In this document: positions 5,040 to 49,968 of the stretch, piece by piece
How the letters are laid out: every line of letters begins with the position of its first letter
Numbering within the stretch: the first letter of the stretch is position 1
Assembly (NCBI RefSeq): GCF_001447785.1
Contig: NW_015165238.1
Coordinates: forward strand, 343,633 to 407,632
Length of the DNA stretch: 64,000 nt
Source: Gekko japonicus
Lineage: Eukaryota
Reading direction: 5' to 3'
Position numbers and translations under genes: made by a program
The notes under the pieces: model-generated
What the model was told of the DNA's origin: nothing
Seen by the model: the letters and a program-made list of their open reading frames with translations, nothing else
The model's database searches: none

Positions 5040-6032
5040 TCATCCCCTTGTTAGCAGCAAAGTGTTCTGTTCCTTTTTTTCATTGGAACAGACAAATCTA
5101 CCCAAAGCCCTTCTTAAAGACTCCTTCACTTCTTTGTTCCTCAGACTGTATATGAGGGGATTCACCATGGGGGTCAGAACTGTGTATGGGACAGAAAACA
5201 CCTTTTTAAGGTCTCTGAGTGTGCTGGTGTTTGGCAAGATATAGACAATTGTTAATGTTCCATAGAAAATGGTGACCACTATGAGGTGAGAGGAGCAGGT
5301 GGCGAATGCTTTTTCTCTGCCAGTGGTGGATGAAATTCTAAAGATGGCAGTGATTATGAATACATAGGAGGTGATGGTCAGTATGAATGGAGGTAAGATA
5401 TCAATTGACCCAAATGTGAGAGTAAATAATTTAACGTGGCTTCTCTCACTGCAGGAGAGTTGAAGCAATGGGCTCAAGTCACAAAAGAAGTGGTCAATTT
5501 CATTGGGGCCACAGAATGCTAACTGTGAAAGCATAGATGTGATAATAATTAATGTGGCTGCCGCAGACAGCCAAGACCCTACTACCAGGTACATGATGAC
5601 CCTGTCACTCATAATAGTTGCATAATGAAGTGGTTTACATATGGCAACATACCTATCGAAAGACATCACCGAGAGGAGGTAGCATTCCACAATGACAAGA
5701 CAACCAAAGAAAAAAAGTTGTGTGAAACAGCCTGAGACAGAAATGGATTTGTCCCCAGTGAGAAAACCTGCCAACATCTTAGGCAGAATGGTTGAGCTAT
5801 AGCAGACCTCCAAGAAGGACAAATTCCCCAGGAAATAGTACATGGGAGTGTGAAGGTGCTGATCTGATGCAACCAAGGTAATAACAAGGATATTTCCTGC
5901 CATGGTAAAAATGTAGATCACCACAAGCACCAGGAAAAGAAGAGTCTGGAACTCTTCAGCTTCTCCAAGTCCCAACAAAATGAATTCCGTGATGGCTGTG
6001 TGGTTCCACTGTTCAGAGGTGGCGATCTGCAT
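5040..6032 (-). CDS. Olfactory receptor, class II (family 6/10/11-like), intact 330 aa
   Basis: Motifs LHTPMYYFL, MSFDRYVAIC, HFFCD, KAFATCSSH, PMVNPLIYSLRN; N-terminal NHT sequon; pyrimidine tract+AG (ttcttttcccccag) directly before ATG. Confidence 0.97.
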   Translation of the reverse strand: MQIATSEQWNHTAITEFILLGLGEAEEFQTLLFLVLVVIYIFTMAGNILVITLVASDQHLHTPMYYFLGNLSFLEVCYSSTILPKMLAGFLTGDKSISVSGCFTQLFFFGCLVIVECYLLSVMSFDRYVAICKPLHYATIMSDRVIMYLVVGSWLSAAATLIIITSMLSQLAFCGPNEIDHFFCDLSPLLQLSCSERSHVKLFTLTFGSIDILPPFILTITSYVFIITAIFRISSTTGREKAFATCSSHLIVVTIFYGTLTIVYILPNTSTLRDLKKVFSVPYTVLTPMVNPLIYSLRNKEVKESLRRALGRFVCSNEKKEQNTLLLTRG

Positions 6033-7363
6033 CTGGGGGAAAAGAACTATATTGAATTAAATTATTTAATTAGCTTGGAGAACATTTTACCGTGCACTGA
6101 TTTTTGAAACAAGTGTGATAATTGTACTTTTTGATACCCCAGGTGTATTCCAGCCTGAGCTCAGTGAAAGAATGATTAGATACCAGGGTGACCGATGAAG
6201 TAGTAAAGGTTACAGCATGCAGTACATCTTTAAAAATCATTGAATTAACTTTTTTTAAAGTCTCAACCCCCCTAAGCAGATGTTTAGGATCCTGTCGAAG
6301 TGTACTCAATGGAGTTTACTACCAGCTAAGTGTTCGCAGGATTGTATTATAATTATGAGAGTAGCAAGAGTCTTGGAGACACATCTGTAGCCATCCAGTA
6401 GCTAATCTATCTGCATTCCTTCTTCCAATTAGAGAAATTCTTTCGAAGCCTCTTGAGCTTAGATAAACAATGTTGTTTATGCTTTTTCAATATTGTCCTT
6501 AGGTGTGGTGGCTTGGATGAATATTTGGAGGTTATAGTTTGTTGTATGAAGAATTTAAAGGAGGTGGAGGAATCCTGCAGACTCCTCTGTGCTTAGCTAG
6601 GTTTTCAGGGCAGCAAATCTGGGACAAAATTTAGAATGTATAAAAAAAATGAATCCAGATTTGTTCTCTGGACCTAGCTCCTCCCTTACTCATTGAGCAC
6701 ATTCCAGGACAGCTATAGCCTGAAAGTGGTGTCAAAACTGCTATAGCACTGCTGAATCTCAATAGTTCTTGCATGATGGTTTATCATTAAGTATGACAGT
6801 TCTTACTGTAAGAGCAGGAACCAACAGATCTGTTTTCATTGCATTTCCTTCCATGTACCTAAAATTCTAAGCTGTCATTGAACTGCTGATTCCTGATTAT
6901 TATTATTTTTTTACTGCAAGGAGAAAAACATAAAACAAAACGATAACCAGGAATGGATTTACCTTAAGCAAAGAATGCTGAGTGCTTTAGCTTCTTCAAC
7001 CAGAGTGGCGGAAGCTGATATGTTTTTTCATTAGCCTCATCTCCACCTTGGAGACGCCAAAGCTTTTCACAAGATTTTCAACATAGTGAATCTGTTCTCG
7101 TCTTTGTCTTGACAACATGTTGCCTTCCAAAGCGAAACAGCTAAGATCTCCAACCTGGAACGAGCAGTTAAAATGAAGAAGAATTCATTCTTATATTAAA
7201 AGTTCAGCTTTCCCTTGTGATGGTTTGTGCCTAATCCTGATTACAGTAGTTTATTAACATAGTGGTCTTCCTAAATGATAGCAAGCTGATCAGAACTTTA
7301 GGGCATTTTTAATAGCATGTCCCTCATCTCAAGGTAAAAATAAAGAAGAAGAGAAACACATAA

Positions 7364-10920: not shown

Positions 10921-11126
10921 CAATGTTCCCTCTAAGCTGTGGAGTCTTGTGAGAAAAAATTCTGCTTTGTGAATTACTGGTTTTAAAGTTGTGAGCCAAT
11001 GATCTGGCTACTGCATAAATCAGTTAGCTCTGGAGCCCTCCTTCCTGAGCCACGGCAAAAGTGTGTGAGCTGGAGGCTAAAAAATTGTGAGCTAGCTCAC
11101 ACTAACTCAGCTTAGAGGGAACACTG
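10921..11126 (+). mobile_element. ~206-bp hAT MITE
   Basis: TIR caatgttccctctaag; perfect 8-bp TSD gtcacacc. Confidence 0.92.
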
Positions 11127-11793
11127 GTCACACCCAGCCTGGATTGCACATTCAACCTTTTTCATGACTTTTACATCTGTTTTACATTTACATGGTACTT
11201 CCTGCATCCTCTCCTTCCCCTTCCTCTTTCCACCTATATATCTCTGGCCAGTTTCTTCATACCCTCCATGCATCTGACGAACAGAGCATCTCTTCATGAA
11301 AGAACAATTTAGCTTTCTGACATGAATTGACCAGGCAATGAAGTGACTATTAAATGAATGTCTTGTCAAAATCTGATCCAATTTTGTATGGTATGGGATT
11401 TTTTATGGTTTTAGTAGCTAAGGCTTGTAGAATACTTTTTTTCTCATTTGGAAGATGCTATAGGAATCATGGCATAGGATAGTTTATTATCATGGCAGCC
11501 CTAAGCAGCGTTACACCCTTCTAAGCCCACTGAAGTCAATGCCATAGGAAGGCATAGTTGAAACAACACGAATGTCACTGTAGGGTTAATGGAATAGCAT
11601 CTCTTCATGAAAGAACAATTTAGCTTTCTGAGATGAATTGACCAGGCAATGAAGTGACTGGTTGGTGAAAACTGTTTTTCTTCCTCTCCTGCATGACAGA
11701 CCCCCTGCAGAACTGCTAATCCTTTAAATGTTTTGAATTAGAATTATATCTAATACTTCCTGATACATTCTTCTGTTTCAGAGGTACCTGAGC

Positions 11794-12771
11794 ATGAATT
11801 CAGAAGAAGGAAACCAAACAAGCCCTACAGAATTCATCCTCCTAGACTTCAATATCAAAGATCTACAGATTCTACTTTTTATACTGTTCCTTCCTATCTA
11901 CCTTGTGACCATGGTGGGAAACATCCTCCTTGTTGTGCTTGTGTTCATTGATCAGCACCTTCACACCCCCATGTACTTCTTCCTGGGGAATTTGTCCTTC
12001 TTGGAGACCTGCTACAGCTCAACCATTATGCCGAGAATGCTGATCAGATTTCTAAGTGGGGATAAAGGCATTTCCATAGGTGGCTGCATTGCCCAAATGT
12101 ATTTCTTCGGGTTTCTTGCAACCACTGAATGTTATTTTCTTGCAGTAATGTCTTATGACCGTTATTTGGCAATATGCAGGCCGTTGCATTATGCAATGCT
12201 CATGAATGGAAGAATCTGCATCCTCTTGATTGCTGTTTCCTGGATATTTGGAGCACTGAAACTTGGTATTGTAATATTTTTGGTGTCTCGGTTGACTTTC
12301 TGTGGACCCAACAAAATTAATCATTTCTTCTGTGATTTCACCCCAGTGATAAGGCTCTCTTGTGATGACACCTATGTAGTTGAAATGACCCTCCTGATAT
12401 TCTCCTCCATAGGCACTCTGTTCCCACTGGTCATAATTGTCATATCTTATGTTAGCATCATTAAGAGTATATTGAGAATCCCATCCACTACTGGGAAACA
12501 AAAGGCCTTCTCCACTTGCTCTTCACACATCATTGTGGTGTCCTGTTTTTATGGGTCTTTGATGATAGTCTATGTCTTACCAAACACCAGCTCCCTGAGG
12601 GAGGTGAAGAAACTGTTCTCTCTGTTCTATACACTTCTCACCCCACTGGTCAATCCACTCATATATAGCTTGAGGAACAAAGAAGTAAAGGAAGCAATGC
12701 AGAAAAATTTCAAGATTCTTAGGTCCTTGCCACACGGCAGGGAAAACACCAGCCAAAGTGCGGCTAATTAG
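11794..12771 (+). CDS. Olfactory receptor, class II, intact 325 aa; last 16 aa come from a MITE
   Basis: LHTPMYFFL, MSYDRYLAIC, KAFSTCSSH, NPLIYSLRN; NQT sequon; acceptor ttctgtttcag 12 nt upstream of ATG. Confidence 0.97.
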   Translation: MNSEEGNQTSPTEFILLDFNIKDLQILLFILFLPIYLVTMVGNILLVVLVFIDQHLHTPMYFFLGNLSFLETCYSSTIMPRMLIRFLSGDKGISIGGCIAQMYFFGFLATTECYFLAVMSYDRYLAICRPLHYAMLMNGRICILLIAVSWIFGALKLGIVIFLVSRLTFCGPNKINHFFCDFTPVIRLSCDDTYVVEMTLLIFSSIGTLFPLVIIVISYVSIIKSILRIPSTTGKQKAFSTCSSHIIVVSCFYGSLMIVYVLPNTSSLREVKKLFSLFYTLLTPLVNPLIYSLRNKEVKEAMQKNFKILRSLPHGRENTSQSAAN

Positions 12772-13166
12772 AGCCGCACCAAAATAGAAATGCCGCAGTG
12801 GGATCCCACAGATCCCCTTAGCCGCGGCGCCGTTGCTCCCCGGCATGATCAGATGCCGGGGAGGAAGCTACAGTTGGGAGGGGGAGGCTGCCGAACTGCG
12901 CATGTCTGAGCATGCACAGTTCGGGCAGGAGCCGGGGATGCACCAGCAAAAGGACGCGCCGGCGATCCCACGGCTGGCTTTGATGCGGCCTTCTCGGATG
13001 AACCACCACGGTAGGTGGTTCATTTTTTCACTGGGGTTTTGGGTGGAAGGGGTGGATCGGGAATGGGCGCGCAACGCTTCCCAGATGTTGTGGTGGGATC
13101 GCGCCCATTTGCTGTGCCCCCGATCCGTCCCTCTCCTGGCCCAAAACCTCTCATGTGACCGGGGCC
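12722..13166. mobile_element. Harbinger-like MITE inserted in the 3' end of an OR CDS
   Basis: TTA TSD; imperfect TIR ggtccttgccacacg / ggccccggtcacatg; CpG-rich. Confidence 0.82.
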
Positions 13167-16100
13167 TTACTATAGCAAAATGAAATGCATGAGGGAATTT
13201 GACTGTATGTCTTCTAAGTGTTCATAATGGAGGCAATGAACTAGAATGCTTTCTGCCAAATTACAAAGAAGGAATCCTGATTGCATGCAATCAAGTTAGA
13301 GGGACTTCTTAAGACGTCACAACTATCAGGATACATTTTTACTAACTGCATGTGTATCTTTTGATCATCCCTCATACTGGCATAATTTGGTTGGAAGTAT
13401 CTAGAGATTCTGTGAATTAGTTCGCCAGGCAATTTTGATAAAATCATTATCAGCTATTATTGTGAGCCAGTCTCTGCAGATTACTTTGTTAATCCAGCAA
13501 ACACCACTATCACCTTGTGAGCTGACTAAAATTAGCTTTTTTGCCTAATCATGGTGTTCACTGACTGACTCACCAGCTGAAGAATTGAACTGGCTCCGTT
13601 GAAACACATTGGTGTACTGAGAAGACCAGTTTAGGACTGCACTCTGAGTCCCCACTGAAATGGCATTGCTCAGAGGAGGCTCTGGGACTACAATGACTGC
13701 TTTAGGATGGGAATGAGATCTGCCAAAATGAAATGATGATCCCTGGGAGTAGAATGATCAAGTAGGGAACATACAGAAACTTGCAGAGGACATCTAATTT
13801 TCCCATGTATCCCCTTCCCTGCTGTTTGTCTGTTCTTTCCCATGGCAGCCTACACTTAGAATCACGGCCCCTTTCCTCTTTGCTTTTTACCATCCATCCT
13901 TTTGAAGACTTCTGATAAATTTGAAAGCTTGCACAGTATTTTGGAAATTTATGGATTTGGCTTTTGAGATAAACAAATATAAAAGCAGAGGAAGTGTACA
14001 GGAAAAAATACACCATCTGCAAAGATGTTGCTTGGAAAGCCAATTCTTTTGGCTAGGACACTGCCATGATAATGTGTCGGACTGTTATATTGCATCCCTG
14101 TGCAGAGTTGTTCCTGTCTAAGCCCAAGTAAGTTAAATGTCTTTGACTGGAGTAACTCTGTTTAGGATAGCACTGTCAGAAAGTGCTTCCCCTCTCCTGA
14201 CTTCTTTTTGTACAGTTTGTAGACCGAGCTGTGAGATAAAATTTAATGGTGAGTTTGGGGTAAAAATAATGAGGATCCATACTTTGAATTCATGCTTTGG
14301 AACCCTGTTTTTGCACCGTGGTAGTACCATAACGCTGTGGATCCATATTTGGTGTGTTTTTTTGTGTTGTTTTATGGTGCAATCTGTGGGCATGGCTGTG
14401 ATTTTCAATTGAAATGTATGTTTGGGGTAAATAACATGAAGATCCATGAATATCTGTGCCTTTGGATCCATGCCCCACTCATGCTTCAGACACAATCACA
14501 TCTTCCTAAATTGGCATGAGGGGGACCTTTACCAGTGGTGTTTTGCTCCCCCTAAAGAGGTCTACTGAGATGAAAGACCCCTTTCATCTCATTCTACTTG
14601 TGGATATCATATTAGACTCCATACCATAGTTTTTCTGGATCATGTCTAAGTTTTTTTTGGGGGAAACTGAGCTCTTTTGCAAAGGTATGCAGAAAATCCA
14701 TGCTGACAAAAGCAAAAGGTAGGGTCTAATATAATAAAAGCAAAATAATTAATTTTGGTAGTCTTTTGTCATCGATTTTAGTTTGGTTGCAGAGAAAATA
14801 ATTGTGCAGCAGCACCACTGGGCTATGTAACAGACCACACATGTGTGAAAGCTAAGCTTGTATGCATGCTGGTTTGTGGCCAGCCAGTGAGCTGCTATGA
14901 AGAAGAAGANNNNNNNNNNNNNNNNNNNNNNNNNNNNNNNNNNNNNNNNNNNNNNNNNNNNNNNNNNNNNNNNNNNNNNNNNNNNNNNNNNNNNNNNNNN
15001 NNNNNNNNNNNNNNNNNNNNNNNNNNNNNNNNNNNNNNNNNNNNNNNNNNNNNNNNNNNNNNNNNNNNNNNNNNNNNNNNNNNNNNNNNNNNNNNNNNNN
15101 NNNNNNNNNNNNNNNNNNNNNNNNNNNNNNNNNNNNNNNNNNNNNNNNNNNNNNNNNNNNNNNNNNNNNNNNNNNNNNNNNNNNNNNNNNNNNNNNNNNN
15201 NNNNNNNNNNNNNNNNNNNNNNNNNNNNNNNNNNNNNNNNNNNNNNNNNNNNNNNNNNNNNNNNNNNNNNNNNNNNNNNNNNNNNNNNNNNNNNNNNNNN
15301 NNNNNNNNNNNNNNNNNNNNNNNNNNNNNNNNNNNNNNNNNNNNNNNNNNNNNNNNNNNNNNNNNNNNNNNNNNNNNNNNNNNNNNNNNNNNNNNNNNNN
15401 NNNNNNNNNNNNNNNNNNNNNNNNNNCACTTAACCACTATACCAAACTGGCTCAGTGATTATTGATCTAATCAACCAATACTTTGGTGGCATATGCACAT
15501 GTGGTGATTAAAAGATAGTCTGAACCTGCAGTAGTTTGGGCATCCCTAGAAAGGGATAATCCTCAAAACAAAAGCCTGAGGCCTTGGAACCTTCTTGGAC
15601 TTGGGACAGGAGCACCAAGAAAGATCCTATTATCCTTGACCCATAGACCTCATAGCTAGGGGGATAAAACATGGCACACTTCCCTCGGACACTAAAGAAG
15701 GCTTTGCAAGGAGGAGCAGGAGCTATACCCATGTGAGGGCTTGGAGCCAGGGTGGATGCACAAAGAGAGGAGGCCTGGCTTTCTGCATCTCACCAATTGC
15801 CTGCACTGTAATTTGGTCTGAAATGAGTGTTTGGCCTTTGTGCACCGTCAAACTCTCTTGAGCAATGAAAATACAGTTGACCTTTTGATTATCACAGCTT
15901 ATAATGTTGGCTGTCCTTATTCCATGTCTGCAGGCAATTTTTTTTTTAATGGATTATTCTTCAAAGCTAGGCTGTCCCCAGGTTTCTAGAAAAACCTTCC
16001 CTTTCCACAGGGAAAAATCTCCCTTTTATGTATCTGAGCCCATTGTGCGGATTTTTTCATTTGTGCTCAGGAGCTAAGTTGAGAATTAGATGTGTACGTA

Positions 16101-17450: not shown

Positions 17451-17888
17451 AGAGCCAGTCTGGTGTAGTGGTTAAGAAAGGCAGACCCTAATCTGGAGAA
17501 CCAGGTTTGATTCTCCACTCTTCCACATGAAGCTAGCTGGGCAACCTTGGGTCAGTCACAGTTCTCTCAGAGCCTTCTCAGTCCTACCTACCTTACAGTC
17601 AATATTCCCTCTAAACTGAGTTAGTGTGAGCTAGCTCACAGTCTTTTAGCCTCTGGCTCACACATTTTTGTCTTAGCTCAGGAAGGATGGCTCCAAAGCA
17701 AACTAATTTATGCAGTAGCCAAATTGCTCACTCACAATTTTAATGCCAGTAGCTCACAAAGTAGAATTTTTGCTCACAAGACTCCACAGCCTAGAGGGAG
17801 CATTGCTCACAGGGTGTCTGTTGTGTGAACAGGAAAGTAAAGTGATTGTAAGCCAGTTCGAGACTCCATAAAAACCAACTCTTCTTCT
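17451..17888 (+). mobile_element. Squam3-like tRNA-derived SINE (interrupted); paralogous copies at ~26880-27100 and 36496-36575
   Basis: A-box tggtgtagtgg, B-box-like ggtttgattc, body cctcacagggtg, (ctt)n tail. Confidence 0.8.
17600..17805 (-). mobile_element. ~206-bp hAT MITE nested in a SINE
   Basis: Same family, opposite orientation; TSD cttacagt/ctcacagg; absent from the paralogous SINE at ~26995. Confidence 0.9.
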
Positions 17889-17992
17889 AAAGGTCTTGAT
17901 CTGAATAGCAGTGGGTACGAAAGAGAGTGGGAAAGGGAGGGAGTTAATCTCTAATCTTTTCCAGTACACAATATATGATTTCTTCTTTACAG

Positions 17993-18979
17993 ATGCAGCA
18001 TATGAAAAACTCAGAGTGGCAAAACAGAACTGCTGTCACCACCTTCATCCTTCTAGGGTTTGGCAATGCTGAGGATCTGAACATTCTCCTTTTCTTACTA
18101 TTTCTAGCTATCTACCTTGTGACTCTGTCAGGCAATCTTCTCATTGTCCTCCTGGTGATGTTTGACCAGCACCTCCATACTCCCATGTATTTATTTCTGG
18201 CAAATCTGTCCTTTTTGGAGTCCTGCTACACTTCAACAATATTACCAAGAATGCTGGCCAGTTTTGTCACAAGGGACAAAACCATCTCGCTTTTGGGTTG
18301 CATTCTTCAGATGCATTTCTTTACTACTCTGGCAGCCACAGAATGTTACCTCTTGGCTGCTATGTCATATGATCGCTACCTGGCCATATGTAAACCTTTG
18401 CATTATGCCACACTTATGAATGAGAGAATGTGTATCCTGCTTGTTTCAGTATCATGCATAATTGGCCTACTTCTTATAACCATCTTAACATGTTTGGTTT
18501 CACAGCTTAACTTTTGCAACCGATATATAATTGACCATTTCTTTTGTGATTTCACCCCCATGGTTCGACTTTCCTGTAGTGACACCCAGGTTGCGGAAAC
18601 GGCAGCTTTTATAACATCGTCTATAGGGATTCTACCTACATTTCTTGTAACTGTGGCATCCTATGTTTTTATTATCACAACAATCCTGAAAATCCCTTCC
18701 ATCACTGGGAGACAGAAGGCGTTTTCCACCTGCTCCTCTCATCTCACTGTAGTTTCCATTTTTTATGGCTCCTTAATGTTTGTCTATGTCTTGCCGACAA
18801 CAGAGAAGTTCAAAGATCTCAATAAGGTCTTCTCTTTATTGTATACATTCCTAACGCCAATGGCCAATCCTTTCATATACAGCCTAAGGAACAAAGAAGT
18901 AAGGAGCAGTCTTAGAAAACTGGTATACCAGTTCTGGGAGTTTTCTGTGACACAAAAGAAATTATGCATCTGTGATTGA
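17993..18979 (+). CDS. Olfactory receptor, tandem copy A
   Basis: All OR motifs present; ORF track starts at 17975 but ttcttctttacag|ATG indicates a start at 17993 (or the next Met). Confidence 0.96.
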   Translation: MQHMKNSEWQNRTAVTTFILLGFGNAEDLNILLFLLFLAIYLVTLSGNLLIVLLVMFDQHLHTPMYLFLANLSFLESCYTSTILPRMLASFVTRDKTISLLGCILQMHFFTTLAATECYLLAAMSYDRYLAICKPLHYATLMNERMCILLVSVSCIIGLLLITILTCLVSQLNFCNRYIIDHFFCDFTPMVRLSCSDTQVAETAAFITSSIGILPTFLVTVASYVFIITTILKIPSITGRQKAFSTCSSHLTVVSIFYGSLMFVYVLPTTEKFKDLNKVFSLLYTFLTPMANPFIYSLRNKEVRSSLRKLVYQFWEFSVTQKKLCICD

Positions 18980-20044: not shown

Positions 20045-20233
20045 TGCCTCATGGTCATGCTGACCCATACCGGGCACAGAGGACATTCATAGAAATGGTG
20101 TGATAGCTTGCCTCTGACCTCCTGGTCCTGGCATTCTCTGGAGGTCTCCCATACAAGTACTTTCAAGGGTCAGCCGTGCTTAGCTTTTGAGATCTGATGA
20201 AATCAGGCTTGCCTGGGCTATTCAGGTCAGGGC
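20045..20233 (-). mobile_element. 5S rRNA-derived SINE (SINE3 type); paralogs ~29250-29422 and ~38710-38889
   Basis: Reverse complement gives a 5S-like head (cctgatttcatcagatctcaaaagctaagcac...tgggagacc) followed by a non-5S body. Confidence 0.75.
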
Positions 20234-21623
20234 TAAAACTAGCTTTTCCACTAGTGGAAAAGAGAGAAGAGACTCACAAATGGTTGAATATAGCTCAGCA
20301 TGGCTGTAACAGTTCATTGAAGAATGGGTGTGGTAATATTTTGAGATATTTCAATGTCTACACTTGCTTTAATGTTTTAAAAGTAATATTAAATTGTAAA
20401 GGTGTAGTACTAAATTCTGGAATCAGAATTGCAATTTTACTTCGGAGACCACAAGGTCTGCACTTTCAGGATACATTATTTAAAATCTAAAAAGTCCAAG
20501 GACTGCTTTAGAAGTTGTACAATCTAAAATCCAATCCTATGCATATTTTCTCAAAAAAATGTTAATAAGTTTGATGGAACTTAAAAGAAACAGATTGTAG
20601 CCTTGGATGTTCTCTCAACTAACATCTTCTAAAAGTTCAAAATTCAATACTTCGGTTTGACAGGTTTGACACATTCCTCTGTGGCTGAGAGATGCTAGGA
20701 GGAAGCTCGGTCTGGTGACAGGGAGAAGGAACACTTTGGGATATGGAGGTGAGGGGGTTAGTGGGCCAGTGGCATGAACTGGGTGGCCTCCCTTAATAGG
20801 GAGAGTCTGGCCCAGTGGTCCTTCTGTGAGGAATGGGTAGCTGGCAACATCTGCATCTGAGGAAGGGCAGGGAGAACCCTTATGAGTACGAGGGATAAGA
20901 AGATTTGGAGAGGGCCTTGAGTGCAGGTCCAGATGTTAGGGTGATCATTAAAGGAGGTAGTCAAGCATAGCCTGGGGTAGATGGGGGGGAGGAGAGAAGG
21001 GTGGTACACAGCATGAACCACTGTGTAAGCTCATCAGTATACTGCAGATATGACAGAATCTTCATGTCTGGGAGTTCTTCTTGCAATGGGAAGAAGGCTA
21101 TGGAAACATATCCAACTTGTTGTGCCCCAATTGTGCAAGCATCTCATCAGCCCACATTAACAGCTATACTCCCTCTCAAATGCACAGTTCATATAAACAT
21201 ACTCATAGAAACATGCCTGTCCCTCAAGCACAATCACCCTTCTTACAAACCAAACATATCAGTAATGCCTCCCTGGGTTTACCTGCAGATGTGCAATTAA
21301 GGATGGCGGAGTTTACTGTAGCATTCTTCACCACAGCCCAGCCTAATATACAGATTATGATTATGCCAACCCTTCCTAGTAGAACAGCAAATACTTGGGC
21401 ATTGGAGTGGGATAAGCATGAGCTCTTGTTGAGGTGGTAAAAGGAAATGTTGTGTGGTTGCCCCATGGGCCACACCTGGCTACTGGCCTCGCCATAGAAC
21501 CAATAGTGAAAAGAAGGGAAGAGGGATTTTCTAAGAGGGATTTTCTAAGCCCTGTGCCAATGGATGCATGCAACTGCTTCTCTGCTTTCAAGAGAAATGT
21601 GAGGCTGCTCCCACTCTGACAGC

Positions 21624-23402
21624 TAGGCCCGTAGCTAACAACTTTTTGCTCAGGGGGCCCATATTTTTCTCAGGGGGCCACCACCAGTATGTTCCCTCTA
21701 AGATGTGGAGTTTTGTGAGCAAAACTTCTACTTTGTGAGCTACTGCCATTAAAGCTTCAGTGCAGCCTGCAAGACAGGAATTAGGAGGGCGACAAGGCGC
21801 AGCTCCACCAAAGGCAAGAGGCGCGGGCAGCCAGGGCATCCTCTTACCGCAGCAGCTTGCAGCAGTGGGTCAGCCTTGTCCTTCCCCGGAAAGCGGCTGG
21901 GGAATCTGGCGGGGGCCAGAGACTGCCTCGCCTGTGGCCGAGGAGGGCCAGCAGGGTGCCGAGAAAGAAGGAGCCGGCGGTGCAGCACAAGTAGAAGAGG
22001 AGACGGAGCAGAAGCAATGCCAAGCATTGCTGTCCTCCGGGTGCCTCTTCCTCCGCGCACAGTCGGCCCAGGTGGAAAAGGGGCACCGCTAGCAGGCCGC
22101 CCCCGCCCAGTGACAAAGTGCAAAAAGATCGGAGAGATTGACAGCTATGTACAGATCTGTGGTTGCCCTTTTGCCCCACCTCCCCGCCACGATGGAGGGG
22201 CACCCGGGCGTGACCCCCCGAACAACTTTGGTGCGCTCTCGTTTACCCCCTTCCCTTCTGCCCCACGTAGAAAGGCCTGGTGAGACGGCAGGGATTGGCA
22301 CGGGGGCAAAATGGCTGAGGGAGGGAGGGGGCTCTGCCTTGGTGTCTCTATTCTTCCCCCCCCCCCACACTTGGGACCCATCGGACTTCCTTCGCTGCCA
22401 CTGTCAGGCACCCCAAAGGCCCCCGCAAGCGAGAGGAGACGGGAAGGCTCGGGGAGCGATGCGCGTGTAAGAGGCAACAGGCCTTGCAAACCCTTCCACG
22501 CGTCCGCACCATGGACTGGAAGCAGTCTCGGGCCACCGGGTCTGCCCAAGAATGTGGCCGTTCTGGGGAGGGGGGGACGCAGCCCTTTAGGCTGCTCCGT
22601 CAAGGTGGCCAGGCTGGAGAAAGCGAGGGACAAGAAAGCGGACTCCGCATTTGCTGCATTGCAGCACGGGGGGGGGTGCTCCCCCACAGCAGACTGTGGC
22701 CCCGCAGATGGCCACTGGGACGCAGTGTGGAGGAGCCCCCGAGGGGGGAGACGATGCTGCCGTGTTGAGAAATCCCGGGGAGGGAGGGGGGAAACCCGCA
22801 TCTGGGCGCTGCTTCCCTTGCTTCTGCACTAAACGGACCAGGGGTGTGTGTTGGGAGTGCGGCAGCAGTCCCAGCCCGGTGGCAGCAGCATAGAGCGGGA
22901 CAAGCCACCGCGCTCCAGCATCACCGGCGTCTCCTCCTCGTCGTTGCCTTCGGCCACGGTTGCTAGGATGCTGCTGCTGCAGGATTCGCTGCCTGAGACT
23001 CTGAGCTTCGTGCGCTCTGCGCATCCCACGGCAGGGCTCGCCGACTCAAGCTGGCCGCTGCTGCTGCTGGAGATGTTAGCAGTGGTGTCTGCATTGGGGA
23101 ACATGCTGCTCCAGCCAGTGGCGGGAACAAGCGCATCTCCCACCCAGGAGGCCCGCTTGCAAGGTCGCGTGGCCCTGCAAAGACACGGGGGGCGGAGAAG
23201 GCTTTGCAGGGACCCGCGCTTCAGCACAGCCCTGCAAAGACGTGGGAGGGCCCGCCCCTGTTGTCGTGGCGCCTTGAGGAAGATGAAGGCGCCTGTCATT
23301 GGGAGAGACGCAGGGGGAGGAGGGGGAGCAGAGGATGGGGGAGGAGGCCCGCAAAACCCGTGGGGTCCAGGCCCTGAGGGCCCCACGCAGGCTACGGGCC
23401 TG
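21624..23402. mobile_element. Non-autonomous hAT element with GC/CpG-rich cargo
   Basis: TIR (t/c)aggcccgtagc; perfect 8-bp TSD ctgacagc (21616-23, 23403-10); empty site ccactctgacagcacatttt at ~33081. Confidence 0.92.
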
Positions 23403-23604
23403 CTGACAGCACATTTTGAGACTCTGCTGTTCTGTCCCTGCACCAAAGCAGGCTTCACAGGCTTCAGAATGGGAGGAGAGGGGATAGTATTTCCTGGTTG
23501 CTCCTTATCCGTGTTGTGCTCAGCCCTTGGTGCTGCACATGGGAGGCCAACACTTTCCTCTCTGGCCTCTTCCTGGAGCTACCATTTAAAGACAGCAAGG
23601 CCAC

Positions 23605-23933
23605 AGTGGCTCAGAGGTTAAGATGCTGAGTGGAAGACCAGAAGGTCTGTAGTTCATCAGTTTAAGACCCTAGTGCTGCATGATGGAGTGAGCTCCTATC
23701 TGTGGCCCCAGCTCTGGCCAACCTAGCAGTGTAAAAGCGCATGTAGAGAAATAGGTACTGCTTCCGTGTAAAGGTAACAGTGTTCCATGTGCCTCAGCAT
23801 TTAGTCATGTCAGCCACATGACCAGAGAAATGTCTTTGGACAGTGCTGGCTCTTCGGCTTGGAAATGGAGAGGGGCACTGCCCCCTAGAGTCAAATTCTA
23901 CTAGCTTTTGAGCAAGGGAAACCTTTACCTTTT
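23605..23933 (+). mobile_element. Sauria SINE
   Basis: tRNA-like head, (accttt)n tail, TSD aggccac; empty site at ~33281. Confidence 0.85.
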
Positions 23934-26241: not shown

Positions 26242-27204
26242 TTAATGTTTCCTTCTCTTCACCCCTCATTCTACAATCCAGTCTTGTACACCAGATATCA
26301 AACTGCTAATACATATATGCAAAAGCAACCTTGACGAATGTAAACAAAATCTGTGGTTTTTTGCAAAAATATTTATAGTAATATAAGATCACCTATCATG
26401 CAGAGTGAAAATAAAGTACAAAGTGTGCAATTACATTAAAAGACATAAAATTACAAGTGGGACATAAACCCTGCTGAAGTACAATCCTAAAGGGACTGAT
26501 TCTATGAACAATCTTCTTTGTGCTGTAAGAACAGAAGGAAGCCTCCTCCTTAACAGCCAAGGATAAGTCCCTCGGAGCATGCAGTTTTCTCCTTCTTTCC
26601 TCACGTTTTCAGAATCCTCAGTATTAGTGAGTTCTGAAAATCTGGGGGGGGGGGAGGAGAAAACTTTGGGTTTGCCCCTGGTGAACAAAAATCTACTGCA
26701 GAAAATTTCACATAACACGCAGATTTTAAAATGTCAATGTGGGGAATTTCACTGCTGTGGAAACAGTTCTTCTTTTGCATTCAGCATTCTTGTCCACCTT
26801 TGCCTTAGTTTATATAAGTTATTTATGTAGTATTTGATCAATGTGTTTGCATGCAGTTATCTTTACATTTTCCTTAATGAGAACCAGTCTGGTATAGTGG
26901 AGGACTGGGTGTGATTATACACTTTTCCACGTGAAGGCAGCTGGGTAAAATTGAGTCACTCACAGTTCTCTCAGAGCCCTCTCAGCCCTACCTACCTCAC
27001 AGGGTGTCTGTTGTAGGGAGAGGAAGGGAATGTGATTGTAAGCCACTTTGAGACTCCTTCAGGTAGTGAAAACTAAGGTATAAAACCCAACTCTTCTTCT
27101 AAAGGTCTTGATCTGAATAGCACTGGGTATGAAAGAAAGTGGGAAATGGAGGGAGTTAATTCCTAATCTTTTCCAGTACTCAGTATATGATCTCTTATTT
27201 ACAG

Positions 27205-28188
27205 ATGCAGCATGTGAAAAACTCAGAGTGGCAAAACAGAACTGCTGTCACCACCTTCATCCTCCTCGGGTTTGGCAATGTTGAGGATCTGAACATTCTC
27301 CTTTTCTCATTATTTCTAGCTATCTACGTTGTGATTCTGTCAGGAAATGTTCTGATTGTTGTCCTGGTAATGGTTGAACAGCACCTCCATACTCCCATGT
27401 ATTTCTTTCTGGCAAATCTGGCCTTTTTGGAGTCCTGCTACACTTCAACAATATTACCAAGAATGCTGGCCAGTTTTGTCACAAGGGACAAAACCATCTC
27501 GCTTTTGGGCTGCGTTCTCCAGATGCATTTCTCTTCTACTCTGGGGGCTACAGAATGTTACCTCTTGGCTGCTATGTCATATGATCGCTATCTGGCCATA
27601 TGTAAACCTTTGCATTATGCCACACTTATGAATGAGAGAATGTGTATCCTGCTTGTTTCAGTATCATGGACAAATGGGCTACTTCTTATAACCATCTTAA
27701 CATGTTTGGTTTCACAGCTTAACTTTTGCAACCAATATATAATTGACCATTTCTTTTGTGATTTCACCCCCATGGTTCGACTTTCCTGTAGTGACACCCA
27801 GGTTGCGGAAACGGCAGCTTTTATAACATCGTCTATAGGGATTCTACCTACATTTCTCATAACTGTGGCGTCCTATGTTTTTATTATCACAACAATCCTG
27901 AAAATCCCTTCCATCACTGGAAGACAGAAGGCGTTTTCCACCTGCTCCTCCCATCTCACTGTAGTTTCCATTTTTTATGGCTCCTTAATATTTGTCTATG
28001 TCTTGCCGACAACAGAGAAGTTCAAAGATCTCAATAAGGTCTTCTCTTTCTTGTATACAATCCTAACGCTAATGGCCAATCCTTTCATATACAGCCTAAG
28101 GAACAAAGAAGTAAGGAGCAGTCTTAGAAAACTGGTATACCAGTTCTGGTGGTTTTCTGTGATACAAAAAAAAATTATGCATCTGTGA
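27205..28188 (+). CDS. Olfactory receptor, tandem copy B
   Basis: OR motifs; acceptor tatttacag|ATG; C-terminal 1-nt frameshift (KKIMHL vs KKLCICD); TM7 PMANP changed to LMANP. Confidence 0.94.
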   Translation: MQHVKNSEWQNRTAVTTFILLGFGNVEDLNILLFSLFLAIYVVILSGNVLIVVLVMVEQHLHTPMYFFLANLAFLESCYTSTILPRMLASFVTRDKTISLLGCVLQMHFSSTLGATECYLLAAMSYDRYLAICKPLHYATLMNERMCILLVSVSWTNGLLLITILTCLVSQLNFCNQYIIDHFFCDFTPMVRLSCSDTQVAETAAFITSSIGILPTFLITVASYVFIITTILKIPSITGRQKAFSTCSSHLTVVSIFYGSLIFVYVLPTTEKFKDLNKVFSFLYTILTLMANPFIYSLRNKEVRSSLRKLVYQFWWFSVIQKKIMHL

Positions 28189-30439: not shown

Positions 30440-32450
30440 GGGTGCGTTCAGACGCGGCCTTTCTGCCGGCATAAACTGCACCGGTTCCAACCGGTGCAGT
30501 TTATGCCAGCTGAAACGCGATCACACTCACCTCCATTCTCATTCACCAAAATACAGAAAGTGCAGATAATCAAACGCCAGGCTAAAACAGCGTGGGGGAG
30601 CTGATCCCTAGGCGGCTAAGCAAGGATCTCGACATGGGCGAAGGAAGGGGAAAATCAACAGGAGAGTAAAGAAAGACTCATCCAAGACGGAGTTTAAAAA
30701 CGTGGCCACAGAAATGGAGAGTTAAGGAAGCCTTACCTGTAATGTATTGGTAATGTATCTGTCCAGACCAGAGCAAGTAATTAAAGAGGACGTTTCCGAA
30801 CTGAGGAATGAGCTACAGAGGAAAGAAGCACTGATTCAGAAGCACTTGGGGAAGCTGCGACACTGGCACCAAGTTCTTGAAGACCTCAATGTGCAGCATA
30901 AAAAGCCGGCTGAAATGCCTCAAGGAGCTTTGGCTTACCTAGAGCAAGCTTCGGCAAATATCCCAGCACCTCTTAAGCAGACATGAACAAGCAAGCTCAT
31001 TCTACTTTTAGAACACCATCTCTACTTTTGAGACCAAGTGATGTGGGAACTTTTAAAAACCTTGTTGAAGTTGAAAAAGAAAGTAAATGAGAACACCCAC
31101 ACCCTCCCCTCCCCCCCTAGTAACAAGATGTTTAAACAAGCTGTAAACGTCAACATTGATGAATGCATGCAATAAAACTAGAATAACAAACTGTTAGCAA
31201 GAACCAAGTGCAGGATCCTTATGGAAGCTAGAAGTCACGTCTGGAGCTTTAAGCAAGTTTCCTTGTCAATGCAGTTCTGGCGATCTCTTGCTTAAGTGGG
31301 AAGACAGAAAACACCGAGGAAGTTAAAACAAACAACAAGCTAGTGAGAAGATGATTAACTGAAATGAGGAATGTTTTATAGATGGTTCCTTATCCTTCCA
31401 CTGAGGTGAGACCTAGTTTTTAAACTTTCAGCAATATTGCTAAGGTTGAAAATGCAATTTGTCATCTAGGGAGGGGGCTTCTTTTTGTGTGTATTCTATC
31501 TGGGAGGGGGGGAAATGAAACTGCAACTTGGGAGTGTAGACTGAAGACACTGCTGTTGGGGGTATTCAAAATAGTAATTGGAAGAACAGCAGCAAGCTTC
31601 CTTCTTAAATATTGCATGGGTGCCCTGGGAAACAGTAGTAAAAAGAAAGACTCAGCCACTGAAGGGATTGCTTCGTGCCTTGCTTTTCTGGCTGAAGTCA
31701 TGTCCTTTGGTTCCTGACAGCGCCGTGTCCTGAAGGGTCTCTTCAAGATAACCTCAGCTTCGTTGTTCAAAGTCACACAATGGAGAACCCAATAGGTAGC
31801 TAACCTGAACGGCACNNNNNNNNNNNNNNNNNNNNNNNNNNNNNNNNNNNNNNNNNNNNNNNNNNNNNNNNNNNNNNNNNNNNNNNNNNNNNNNNNNNNN
31901 NNNNNNNNNNNNNNNNNNNNNNNNNNNNNNNNNNNNNNNNNNNNNNNNNNNNNNNNNNNNNNNNNNNNNNNNNNNNNNNNNNNNNNNNNNNNNNNNNNNN
32001 NNNNNNNNNNNNNNNNNNNNNNNNNNNNNNNNNNNNNNNNNNNNNNNNNNNNNNNNNNNNNNNNNNNNNNNNNNNNNNNNNNNNNNNNNNNNNNNNNNNN
32101 NNNNNNNNNNNNNNNNNNNNNNNNNNNNNNNNNNNNNNNNNNNNNNNNNNNNNNNNNNNNNNNNNNNNNNNNNNNNNNNNNAAATAAAATGGCGGGGGAA
32201 AACCGGAAGCCTCAGGCTTCCCACGGAAATGCCTAGGCACCGGTGGAGAGCGATCAGACGCCGGTTTGCATCGGAAGCCACCGTTGCACCCTGTTTACCA
32301 CCACTTCCGACCTAGTGGCAGAGTGCAATGGTGTACAGCTCTTTACAACGGATAGAGAGGGAAGACAGATGTTCCCCGTCTGAACGCCGGTATGTACATC
32401 GATTGCAACTGGCACAGAATCCGTTGTAAAGGCTGCGTCTGAACGCACCC
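30440..32450. mobile_element. Non-autonomous PIF/Harbinger-like element carrying the MED28 fragment
   Basis: 23-bp TIR gggtgcgttcagacgc(g/a)gccttt; ATA TSD at 30437-39 and 32451-53; empty site gttcatataaacatac in copy A (~21187). Confidence 0.88.
30756..30986 (+). pseudogene. MED28: 5'-truncated MED28 (Mediator subunit 28) fragment, apparently processed; probable 3'UTR continues toward the gap at 31816
   Basis: [72 protein letters not shown] matches the vertebrate MED28 C-terminus; upstream tct gtc cag (SVQ) is out of frame by a 2-nt deletion. Confidence 0.93.
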
Positions 32451-35600: not shown

Positions 35601-36679
35601 TGGTGGCACATTGCTGAACATTTCACATGGCTCCCACAGCCTTTGGCTCCATGATCTGTCAGTCAGAAGCTCTCCCTATCCATGGGCTGCGTTGCCTGAG
35701 TCTCACCTCCAACATTCTAAACAGTTCGCTGTTCCTTTCCCCCCCCATAGCCAGTCAGAAAACAGAGGTTATTTGCATATGTGGCTTGATTGGCCTTTGC
35801 CTCAGAGCACAGAGGTCGTTAGAGGCCTTTGCCTCTAACACTCTAAACAGTTTTCTGTGGCTGTTCTGAGGTAAAATGTGTTCTGAGGTACCCTTAGTGC
35901 CTGTTGCGAGAAACCATTCTTGCCAATCTCCAGTTTAGGGCTGAAGATCACTCAGAATTACAACTGCTTTCCATATGGCAGAGATCAGTTCCCCTGGAGA
36001 AAATGGTGGACTCTGTCTCCTTATATCCTGCTCAGATGCCCCCTGTATGAAAGCCAATGTGACATAGCAGTCAGGGCTTCAGAGCACGGTAGAGGCTGCA
36101 GGTGAGGGGAGGTGGAAAGCTGTCAAGTGAGTGGGAAATAAAGGTAGGTTGATGATTGGCTGGGAAGGAGATTGGGTTGCCAACTCCAGGTGGGAAATTC
36201 CTGGAGATTTGAGGGATGGAGCCTGGAGAGGGTGAGGTTTCAGGAGGGGTGGGACCTCATTCTGGTATAATGCCATAGACTCCACCTTCCAAACCAGCAA
36301 TTCCGTCATGGGGAACCATTGTTGCCAACCTCCAGGTGAGGGCTGGAGATCATTCAAAATTACAACTGTTCTTCAGGTAGCAGAGATCAGTTCCCCCGGA
36401 GAAAATGGTGAACTTGGTGTCATATCCTGCNNNNNNNNNNNNNNNNNNNNNNNNNNNNNNNNNNNNNNNNNNNNNNNNNNNNNNNNNNNNNNNNNAGGAA
36501 GGGAATGTGATTGTAAGCCACTTTGAGACTCCTTCAGGTAGTGAAAACTAAGGTATAAAACCCAACTCTTCTTCTAAAGGTCTTGATCTGAATAGCAGTG
36601 GGTATGAAAGAAAGTGGGAAATGGAGGGAGTTAATTCCTAATCTTTTCCAGTACTCAGTATATGATCTCTTATTTACAG

Positions 36680-37666
36680 ATGCAGCATGTGAAAAACTCA
36701 GAGTGGCAAAACAGAACTGCTGTCACCACCTTCATCCTCCTCGGGTTTGGCAATGTTGAGGATCTGAACATTCTCCTTTTCTTATTATTTCTAGCTATCT
36801 ACATTGTGATTCTGTCAGGAAATCTTCTCATTTTTGTCCTGGTGATGGTTGAACAGCACCTCCATACTCCCATGTATTTCTTTCTGGCAAATCTGGCCTT
36901 TTTGGAGTTCTGCTACACTTCAACAATATTACCAAGAATGCTGGCCAGTTTTGTCACAAGGGACAAAACCATCTCGCTTTTGGGTTGCATTCTTCAGATG
37001 CATTTCTTTACTACTCTGGCAGCCACAGAATGTTACCTCTTGGCTGCTATGTCATATGATCGCTACCTGGCCATATGTAAACCTTTGCATTATGCCACAC
37101 TTATGAATGAGAGGATGTGTATCCTGCTTGTTTCAGTATCATGCATAATTGGGCTACTTCTTATAACCATCTTAACATGTTTGGTTTCACAGCTTAACTT
37201 TTGCAATGGATATATAATTGACCATTTCTTCTGTGATTTCACCCCTATAGTTCGACTTTCCTGCAGTGACACCCAGGTTGTGGAAACGGCAGCTTTTATA
37301 ACATCGTCTATAGGGATTCTACCTACATTTCTCATAACTGTGGCGTCCTATGTTTTTATTATCACAACAATCCTGAAAATCCCTTCCATCACTGGAAGAC
37401 AGAAGGCGTTTTCCACCTGCTCCTCCCATCTCACTGTAGTTTCCATTTTTTATGGATCCTTAATATTTGTCTATGTCTTGCCAACAACGGAGACGTTCAA
37501 AGATCTCAATAAGGTCTTCTCTTTCTTGTATACAATCCTAACGCCAATGGCCAATCCTTTCATATACAGCCTAAGGAACAAAGAAGTAAGGAGCAGTCTT
37601 AGAAAAATAGTATGTCAGTTCTGGAGGTTTTCTGTGACACAAAAGAAATTATGCATCTGTGACTGA
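36680..37666 (+). CDS. Olfactory receptor, tandem copy C
   Basis: OR motifs; acceptor tatttacag|ATG. Confidence 0.96.
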   Translation: MQHVKNSEWQNRTAVTTFILLGFGNVEDLNILLFLLFLAIYIVILSGNLLIFVLVMVEQHLHTPMYFFLANLAFLEFCYTSTILPRMLASFVTRDKTISLLGCILQMHFFTTLAATECYLLAAMSYDRYLAICKPLHYATLMNERMCILLVSVSCIIGLLLITILTCLVSQLNFCNGYIIDHFFCDFTPIVRLSCSDTQVVETAAFITSSIGILPTFLITVASYVFIITTILKIPSITGRQKAFSTCSSHLTVVSIFYGSLIFVYVLPTTETFKDLNKVFSFLYTILTPMANPFIYSLRNKEVRSSLRKIVCQFWRFSVTQKKLCICD

Positions 37667-44832: not shown

Positions 44833-45044
44833 ATTTCAGAATTGGCTCTGTTAGTAAAAGGCAAGGGGAGGGGGCAGGGTCTTTTTCAGGCATATGTTGA
44901 CCTTTGAGGGGAGACTTATTGAGGCTAGGCCTGCCTAAGGTTGCCAGATGCAGTTGGGAAATTCCTGAAGATTTTGTGGTGGAGCCTGAGGAGTTCAGGG
45001 TTTGAGGAGGGAAGAGGCCTCAGCTGAATATAATGTCAGAGTCC

Positions 45045-46031
45045 ATGCAGCATGTGAAAAACTCAGAGTGGCAAAACAGAACTGCTGTCACCACCTTCAT
45101 CCTCCTCGGGTTTGGCAATGTTGAGGATCTGAACATTCTCCTTTTCTTATTATTTCTAGCTATCTACATTGTGATTCTGTCAGGAAATCTTCTCATTTTT
45201 GTCCTGGTGATGGTTGAACAGCACCTCCATACTCCCATGTATTTCTTTCTGGCAAATCTGGCCTTTTTGGAGTTCTGCTACACTTCAACAATATTACCAA
45301 GAATGCTGGCCAGTTTTGTCACAAGGGACAAAACCATCTCGCTTTTGGGTTGCATTCTTCAGATGCATTTCTTTACTACTCTGGCAGCCACAGAATGTTA
45401 CCTCTTGGCTGCTATGTCATATGATCGCTACCTGGCCATATGTAAACCTTTGCATTATGCCACACTTATGAATGAGAGGATGTGTATCCTGCTTGTTTCA
45501 GTATCATGCATAATTGGGCTACTTCTTATAACCATCTTAACATGTTTGTTGTCACAGCTTAACTTTTGCAACGGATATATAATTGACCATTTCTTCTGTG
45601 ATTTCACCCCTATAGTTCGACTTTCCTGCAGTGACACCCAGGTTGTGGAAACGGCAGCTTTTATAACATCGTCTATAGGGATTCTACCTACATTTCTCAT
45701 AACTGTGGCGTCCTATGTTTTTATTATCACAACAATCCTGAAAATCCCTTCCATCACTGGAAGACAGAAGGCGTTTTCCACCTGCTCCTCCCATCTCACT
45801 GTAGTTTCCATTTTTTATGGATCCTTAATATTTGTCTATGTCTTGCCAACAACGGAGAAGTTCAAAGATCTCAATAAGGTCTTCTCTTTCTTGTATGCAG
45901 TCCTAACGCCAATGGCCAATCCTTTCATATACAGCCTAAGGAACAAAGAAGTAAGGAGCAGTCTTAGAAAAATAGTATGTCAGTTCTGGAGGTTTTCTGT
46001 GACACAAAAGAAATTATGCATCTGTGACTGA
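45045..46031 (+). CDS. Olfactory receptor, tandem copy D (ORF intact, native splice acceptor missing)
   Basis: 4 aa differences from copy C; ATG abuts TE sequence. Confidence 0.92.
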   Translation: MQHVKNSEWQNRTAVTTFILLGFGNVEDLNILLFLLFLAIYIVILSGNLLIFVLVMVEQHLHTPMYFFLANLAFLEFCYTSTILPRMLASFVTRDKTISLLGCILQMHFFTTLAATECYLLAAMSYDRYLAICKPLHYATLMNERMCILLVSVSCIIGLLLITILTCLLSQLNFCNGYIIDHFFCDFTPIVRLSCSDTQVVETAAFITSSIGILPTFLITVASYVFIITTILKIPSITGRQKAFSTCSSHLTVVSIFYGSLIFVYVLPTTEKFKDLNKVFSFLYAVLTPMANPFIYSLRNKEVRSSLRKIVCQFWRFSVTQKKLCICD

Positions 46032-49000: not shown

Positions 49001-49077
49001 AATTTAGTGTGGAAAATTTCACATAATGTGCAGATTTTAAAATGTCAATGTGGGGAATTTCACTATTGTGGAAACGG

Positions 49078-49430
49078 TTTAAGTGAATACAGAGATATTT
49101 CTGTTAACACATGCCTTGCACAATTGTATTTATTTGGTTTTTTCATAGCTACTGAATGTTATTTTCTAGCTGTATTATCTTATGATCATTATTTAGCAAT
49201 ATGCAAACCACTGTATTATGCTACCCCATGAATGGCAGAATTTTGATCCTGTTGATTGCTGTATCCTGGATGTGTGGATCACTGAGTGTCAACATCCTAA
49301 TATTCTTGGTGTTCCAGTTTACTTTTTTGTGGACCCACAAAATCAACCATTTTTTCCCATGTGATTTCACAGCAGTGGTGATGCTCTTCTGCAATGATAC
49401 TCATTTGGTTGAAATGACGACCTTCATAAA
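49078..49430 (+). pseudogene. Truncated, frameshifted OR pseudogene (TM3 to ECL2), closest to the 11794 gene
   Basis: CLAQLYLFGFFIATECYFLAVLSYDHYLAICKPL / MNGRILILLIAVSW / KINHFF-CDFT split across frames; 5' part absent; LINE debris at 3' end. Confidence 0.92.
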
Positions 49431-49449
49431 TTTCCTAGATTTTGGAATT

Positions 49450-49968
49450 CTTTTTTTTCTCCTTAATTTTTATTTGATTTTAACACATAATAGGATAGGA
49501 AGGGTACAAGGGATGGGATAAGACATAAAGGGAAGTTCCATCAAGTTTATATAATAGCTGTTACAAATTTTCCATCTTAATGCTTTGTTTCCAGATCTCT
49601 TTCATTTATATATTTACTAAAGCTAGTAACACTTAAACAAATCGCTAAAATCTTCTATAGTGATTCCTGAAGAAAGTCAAGTTGTGTACAGTTCAAGTTA
49701 GAGTTTCACCAAGTTTATAATAGTTATATTCATTGATCATGGTCTTCAAAGTTTCTTTCCACCCAGTCATAAAATGGTATCCAATTATCTCTTGCTTTTT
49801 GTTTACTTCGGTCTTTTAACAAGTCCAACAGTATATCAATTTCTACTGTTATAAATTATTCACAAGTTCATTTTCCGTTGGTATCTCTGATTTCTTCCAG
49901 TAGTTAGCATAAAGAATTCTTGCTGCTGTAACTATATGTATAATTAAGTGCTCAACTTTCTTATCTTT
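49450..49968 (-). mobile_element. L1/Tx1-clade LINE 3' fragment
   Basis: HIVTAARILYANYWKKSEIPT motif, AT-rich 3'UTR, AATAAA and A-rich tail. Confidence 0.7.

Follow-up and report, generated by a model that had tools for sequence, protein, structure and literature searches.

The window analyzed here, 64,000 nucleotides of a Gekko japonicus contig, contains six open OR-like frames and one broken OR (5040–6056, 11764–12771, 17948–18979, 27160–28188, 36635–37666, 45006–46031 and 48869–49521), four of them within tandem units of ~9 kb that are 85–97% alike. Within one OR repeat unit, downstream of OR A by 2.6 kb and upstream of the OR B frame by 3.8 kb, lies a GC-rich insertion, which a preliminary description, made from the letters alone, took for a hAT element that had picked up the promoter and first exon of a host gene. 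This raises the question from which gene the cargo derives, how it came into the element and whether it could still work as a promoter-exon module.

The borders of the insertion are well defined (Table 1). Its TIRs of 12 bp match at 11 of 12 positions, and the flanking TSD, CTGACAGC, is identical at 8 of 8 positions in its two copies. A pattern scan for such TIR and TSD combinations returned two matches in the window, i.e. the element itself and a MITE at 10921, and one match across 20 locally shuffled windows, which served as control. Empty sites carrying one TSD copy are present in the paralogous OR units B (33086) and C (40911), that is in two of the three paralogous units, because unit D lacks the left flank. 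Insertion thus took place in one of the OR repeat units, and later than their duplication. Pfam searches with all 17 given frames of the element detected no family and hence no transposase inside, and Rfam gave no match within it. In these respects the preliminary description, which had listed TIRs, a perfect 8-bp TSD, empty sites and the lack of a transposase, was borne out. It had also spoken of a GC/CpG-rich insertion in AT-rich OR DNA. Indeed, GC content and CpG o/e are 0.64 and 0.56 in the element as compared to 0.42 and 0.21 in the rest of the window, but the flanks (GC 0.47–0.52) are CpG-poor and not AT-rich.

Depth of public contigs identifies both ends of the element as high-copy TIR-element sequence. 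Subterminal repeats are present at each end, but their sequences differ between left and right. The MITE piece near the left end is 85–91% identical to full copies and has loose contig ends at both borders; full copies of this MITE reside at 1664–1869, 10921–11126 and 17596–17805, the one at 10921 with an 8-bp TSD.

Table 1. Features of the insertion and its cargo (positions refer to the window)
Feature	Position	Strand	Basis
TSD, left copy, 8 bp	21616..21623	.	single copy in units B and C
hAT-type element	21624..23402	n/a	TIRs and TSD
hAT-type end with TIR (21624–35) and two 16-nt subterminal repeats (21644, 21664)	21624..21685	.	high-copy family sequence
MITE piece, initial 66 bp of a ~205-bp MITE from a different family with very high copy number	21689..21754	.
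Probable 5' end of SNX25 intron 1, beginning with donor GTAAGA at 21847	21755..21847	-	donor after last exon-1 codon
SNX25 coding exon 1, 3' half, transmembrane anchor	21848..22091	-	70/80 residues identical to G. kuhli KAL8207342
Second cargo, 770 bp, GC-rich, splitting the SNX25 exon	22092..22861	.	contig joint 22091>22862
SNX25 coding exon 1, 5' half, from true ATG (23104)	22862..23104	-	57/79 residues identical to G. kuhli
SNX25 5' UTR, last 66 nt	23105..23170	-	collinear with X4 record 27
Carrier subterminal repeats CCTGCAAAG at 23174, 23202 (inverted) and 23231	23171..23251	.	raised contig depth
Tentatively, inverted piece of SNX25 5' UTR, ~37 nt	23252..23288	+	precedes 23170, in opposite orientation, in other records
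Other hAT-type end with TIR (23391–23402)	23289..23402	.	high-copy family sequence
TSD, right copy	23403..23410	.	repeat comparison

The cargo does include a CpG-rich first exon captured from a host gene, as had been supposed, and the parent, which the preliminary description had left to be sought, was found by protein comparison to be SNX25. When the minus-strand frame 22089–21889 was used as query, 4 of 925 protein candidates matched, all of them squamate (E 2e-25 to 9e-6). One was a Gekko kuhli model (E 2e-25), the other three were SNX25 proteins from Heteronotia, Paroedura and Tiliqua. The G. kuhli model, which is two accessions away from the SNX25 model of the G. kuhli genome, was also retrieved with 22832–23299 as query (E 1.3e-11). 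In the 3' half of the exon, 66 of 80 residues are identical to Heteronotia SNX25 as well. All three gecko proteins cease matching at 21848, where GTAAGA starts, and therefore the donor at 21847 that the preliminary description had pointed out is the true end of SNX25 exon 1. Apart from this donor, GCG|GTAAGA, the element has no GTRAG on its minus strand. By these alignments, SNX25 exon 1 is present in the element with its complete coding part, from the ATG at 23104 to the donor at 21847 on the minus strand, and thus antisense to OR copy A, as had been noted before. Protein alignment detected no match to SNX25 exon 2 in the window, and SNX25 was not found elsewhere in it. The retained intron donor and the missing exon-2 match together show that capture took place from genomic DNA, and the former speaks against a processed (retro) pseudogene. 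Another protein that came up as possible parent (P0002, E 1.3e-12) was rejected, since it is repetitive and gave a best tblastn E of 1.1.

SNX-RGS proteins possess an N-terminal ER anchor (PMC8864675). The frame 22089–21889 is hydrophobic (19-residue mean hydropathy 1.99) and corresponds to this anchor. Hence, what had been read as a mitochondrial presequence is, in its true frame, the membrane anchor of SNX25, a member of the SNX-RGS family (PMC8864675). The cargo comprises the N-terminal acidic stretch and the ER membrane anchor of SNX25, whereas the PXA, RGS, PX and PXC domains are absent; in Heteronotia, PXA begins at residue 191.

The exon is interrupted by a second cargo. Position 22091 is joined directly to 22862 in contigs of the public runs X1 (three contigs), X2 (two) and X4 (one), and therefore 22092–22861 represents a separate piece of 770 bp. 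A 4-bp microhomology, GCAG, is present at its borders. None of the contigs listed spans either border by 31 letters on each side; record 5 of X1 passes the right border by 7 nt only. Record 28 of X4 (1898 nt) matches 22097–22789 with ~9–11% divergence, a value similar to that of the SNX25 parts, which suggests a second expressed donor, possibly another CpG-island transcript. A three-frame profile of this cargo matched 0 of 1540 candidates (three frames, proteins of 148–2000 aa), and in the control a local three-frame profile still recovered SNX25. The best scores in the ESM Atlas, 0.76 and 0.77, are not meaningful, and no codon periodicity was seen in 22097–22340. A nested TIR element was rejected as the source, since no inverted ends were seen. 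This second cargo had escaped the preliminary description, as had the true ATG at 23104 and the 66-bp MITE piece.

These results bear on the proposed promoter. Each of the features described can be read in the letters, i.e. a GC-box motif at 22101, an ATG at 22027, the run of 60 codons and the donor. That they make up one promoter-ATG-exon unit was not borne out, because the GC box resides in the 770-bp piece, which is missing from other copies. The ATG at 22027 spans parts of two SNX25 codons and does not share the frame of the parent exon; another base is found at this place in other copies, accounting for 836 of 1036 X1 depth units (eight contigs). Only about the last 15 of the 60 codons coincide with SNX25. 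In comparison with longer proteins the 60-codon peptide matched 0 of 785 candidates at E≤1, which is weak evidence on its own.

The 5' end of the cargo can be judged from record 27 of X4 (3788 nt). It matches the element from 23170 to 22862 and from 22091 to 21848, where the match halts exactly at the donor and the record continues for 3 kb. Record 10 of X2 runs across the donor border. The coding length implied by record 27 is 543 nt or 181 codons (174, 170 and 178 codons in the three geckos), as compared to 487 nt of SNX25 coding sequence in the window. The unique flanks of the element received no X4 depth, and the lack of window-identical pieces in X4 was not taken as a sign of silence. We infer that record 27 is a spliced SNX25 mRNA and X4 an RNA run, despite the label 'DNA?' attached to it. 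The record reaches 155 nt further 5' than its collinear match to the element, and therefore the cargo begins inside the SNX25 5' UTR. Thus, if X4 is read as RNA, a collinear SNX25 promoter would not be carried, and the promoter proposed before dissolves into a GC box from another piece and an SNX25 match that halts inside the 5' UTR. Upstream of 23170, one contig each in X1, X2 and X4 has this position joined to 23288 on the opposite strand. Tentatively, since the match is short, 23252–23288 is read as a probable segment of the SNX25 5' UTR in inverted orientation.

Next, other versions of the element were assessed in public contigs from the four runs X1 to X4 at 80% likeness, leaving aside the small share of words in X3; X1 may be the sample from which the window itself derives. 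Summed contig depth in X1, which is not equal to copy number, was ~80 for unique pieces, 430–1,530 for the SNX25 parts, 190–580 for the second cargo, 140,537 and ~21,000 for the left and right end, respectively, and 11 million for the 66-bp MITE piece. Up to 12 X1 contigs differ at one place of the SNX25 parts. The SNX25 copy in the window has two frameshifts, one per half, the first near 22886; in the 3' half, 13 nt that the geckos encode are deleted near 21890. These 13 nt are present in only 122.7 of 462.9 units of X1 depth. Record 10 of X2 likewise lacks them, yet it differs from the window at 16 of 221 places. Sister copies thus have the derived 13-nt deletion in common, and since these contigs have diverged, amplification after capture is probable. 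The element is accordingly regarded as probably multicopy, a judgment drawn from contigs and not from distinct TSDs. Shorter relatives contain the joints 21719>23187 or 21874>23015, skipping 21720–23186 or 21875–23014, and are candidates for an empty carrier and a deletion derivative, respectively.

The comparison with X4 also revealed directional decay. Of 112 places changed between X4 and the window, 68 are A>G or T>C, as opposed to 6 in the reverse direction. Among the 32 rows listed (302 further rows being outside this count), 18 of 23 such changes fall within a CpG of the other copy. This is what would be expected if the copy in the window had been methylated, and such CpG-type loss points to methylation in the germline.

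Taken together, we consider it highly probable that the insertion is a non-autonomous hAT-type element of the Pack-hAT or Pack-TIR kind, a decayed mosaic of two donors that is probably multicopy and most likely an inactive passenger. According to the scenario that we propose, template switching in the course of repair or replication would have brought genomic DNA from the SNX25 CpG island into a small carrier, and the resulting Pack element would have been amplified by a transposase acting in trans. One sub-lineage would then have acquired the second piece through the 4-bp microhomology, and one copy would have transposed to the present site, where methylation may since have eroded its CpGs.

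Very unlikely by our estimate, an empty hAT element could have inserted first and been filled in place without transposition, the other SNX25 exon-1 versions being unrelated duplications. This is the route of most animal Pack-TIRs and the usual one for those present in single copy (PMC8277862), and both the cargo-less relative with the joint 21719>23187 and the microhomology at one internal junction are compatible with it. However, the same 13-nt deletion and the intron-side stretch recur in other contigs (record 10 of X2, X1 depth shares), and the failure to find SNX25 elsewhere in the window leaves no close donor in cis in view.

Slightly further down the scale, we regard it as improbable that the element is an active promoter-exon module, with transcription starting in it, splicing from 21847, antisense or chimeric RNA toward OR A, or an ER anchor lent to another gene. 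The donor is intact, CpG o/e of the cargo is still 0.56–0.72 and GC-box motifs remain. Moreover, ~30% or more of the Pack-TIRs studied by Tan et al. are transcribed as chimeras (PMC8277862). Nevertheless, the exon suffers from the two frameshifts and the 770-bp interruption, the frame from the true ATG stops after 91 codons before the anchor is reached, the SNX25 match stops within the 5' UTR, and the directional CpG loss indicates germline methylation. Most likely, this copy is an inactive passenger that lacks a working promoter-exon module. Least probable of all, the mosaic interior would have arisen when the assembly merged several related repeats, and the real allele would be simpler. There are N gaps in the window, members of the family are repeated and vary in structure, and none of the pieces listed spans the whole element. 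Against this, pieces with 0–2 differences at unique depth lie in the second cargo and in the 5' half of SNX25: in X1 these are records 4 and 5, the latter crossing the right border by 7 nt, in X2 it is record 11, and X3, from a second study, provides record 17. Moreover, the TSD is perfect.

A second cargo element, already noticed in the preliminary description as belonging to another superfamily, is located ~7 kb away at 30440–32450, so that both lie within 11 kb. Its TIRs measure 15 bp and its TSD (ATA) 3 bp, unit A has the corresponding empty site near 21190, and judging from the length of the TSD it is presumably a PIF/Harbinger element. It contains a splice acceptor, an open last exon of 72 codons (30767–30986) and following sequence, with one N gap; Pfam identified the exon as Med28 (E 5e-12). 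Two such elements are a hint at gene-fragment shuffling throughout this genome. Pfam searches for further cargo covered 74 of 371 frames (55 or more codons, outside the element and the intact ORs) and yielded MED28, an OR fragment plus a reverse transcriptase and nothing else; these frames were mainly taken from GC-rich stretches, and Pfam would have missed SNX25 exon 1. Elsewhere in the window, CpG-rich patches at 1870–2700 and 12770–13200 have no Pfam match and are candidates for additional TIR elements, cargo-bearing or not. At 20117–20231 there is a weak 5S rRNA match (40 bits, gathering 38), either a pseudogene or the head of a 5S-derived SINE. An insertion at ~23605–23932, 200 bp from the SNX25 element and missing from the paralogous units, resembles what we take to be a squamate SINE. 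LINE remains at 49852–50361 and 50887–51723 comprise an RVT_1 reverse transcriptase fragment according to Pfam and an adjacent CpG-rich frame without Pfam match.

Capture of gene fragments by TIR elements is common in plants, and repeated copies have seldom been reported in vertebrates. Here, the first coding exon of a lipid-trafficking gene was caught in a small DNA transposon. Because the parent could be named, the element is a mosaic from two donors and another cargo-bearing element lies 7 kb from it, geckos are a direct place to ask whether the rarity in vertebrates is real or due to poor repeat libraries. The series of junctions could also be used to test the model of template switching followed by transposition, and copies of this kind interfere with the annotation of SNX25 and MED28 and with the mapping of reads to these genes. 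It is conceivable, if rather doubtful, that multicopy Pack-TIRs with several donors, belonging to two or more superfamilies, spread in the gecko lineage in a burst like those of plants and sampled expressed CpG-island exons genome-wide, with some copies donating intact first exons to other genes. If so, this would be far above the four multicopy cases in 100 animal genomes, and the SNX25 ER anchor would be among the donated exons. The survey in question found its four vertebrate cases in frog and alligator and none in the one lizard included, anoCar2 (PMC8277862). Our literature search, whose coverage left out most subscription papers and bioRxiv supplements, retrieved no paper on a squamate Pack-TIR.

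How does the SNX25 element compare with known systems? MULEs have long TIRs and TSDs of 9–10 bp, whereas the SNX25 element has TIRs of 12 bp and a TSD of 8 bp. Rice Pack-MULEs assemble fragments of several loci in one element. They resemble the SNX25 element in their GC-rich cargo and in being multicopy (PMC8277862), as the SNX25 element probably is. Drosophila Ssk-FB4 is a multicopy TIR element that also holds coding sequence of a membrane protein (PMC8277862), but it carries a nearly whole expressed gene as opposed to one broken exon. Maize Ds2 and Ds-l4 (PMC3260210) and plant Pack-hATs (PMC8903248) share with it short TIRs, an 8-bp TSD, a filler of genomic exon and intron, and decay that in the SNX25 element probably followed methylation; they also have subterminal repeats, which in the SNX25 element differ between the two ends. 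The likeness drawn here is one of structure, the TIRs of Ac measuring 11 bp (PMC3260210), and the SNX25 element differs in having a vertebrate host. As defined by Tan et al. (2021), Pack-TIRs have a non-TE interior with a named parent, in this case SNX25, the ends of a TIR element and capture from genomic DNA, all of which were found here. Relative to multicopy animal Pack-TIRs, whose cargo has a median of 224 bp (PMC8277862), that of the SNX25 element is larger, i.e. ~0.65 kb of SNX25 plus 0.77 kb, and it stands apart by a whole coding first exon with donor, two sources, a MITE piece and a squamate host. The SNX25 element thus displays the Pack-hAT features tested, and it likely belongs to the multicopy subclass. 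Pack-hAT-N8_XT of Xenopus tropicalis, which carries the CAPSL 5' UTR, provides the parallel: hAT ends enclose a GC-rich 5' piece of a host gene, amplification probably followed capture, and there is microhomology at a junction (PMC8277862).
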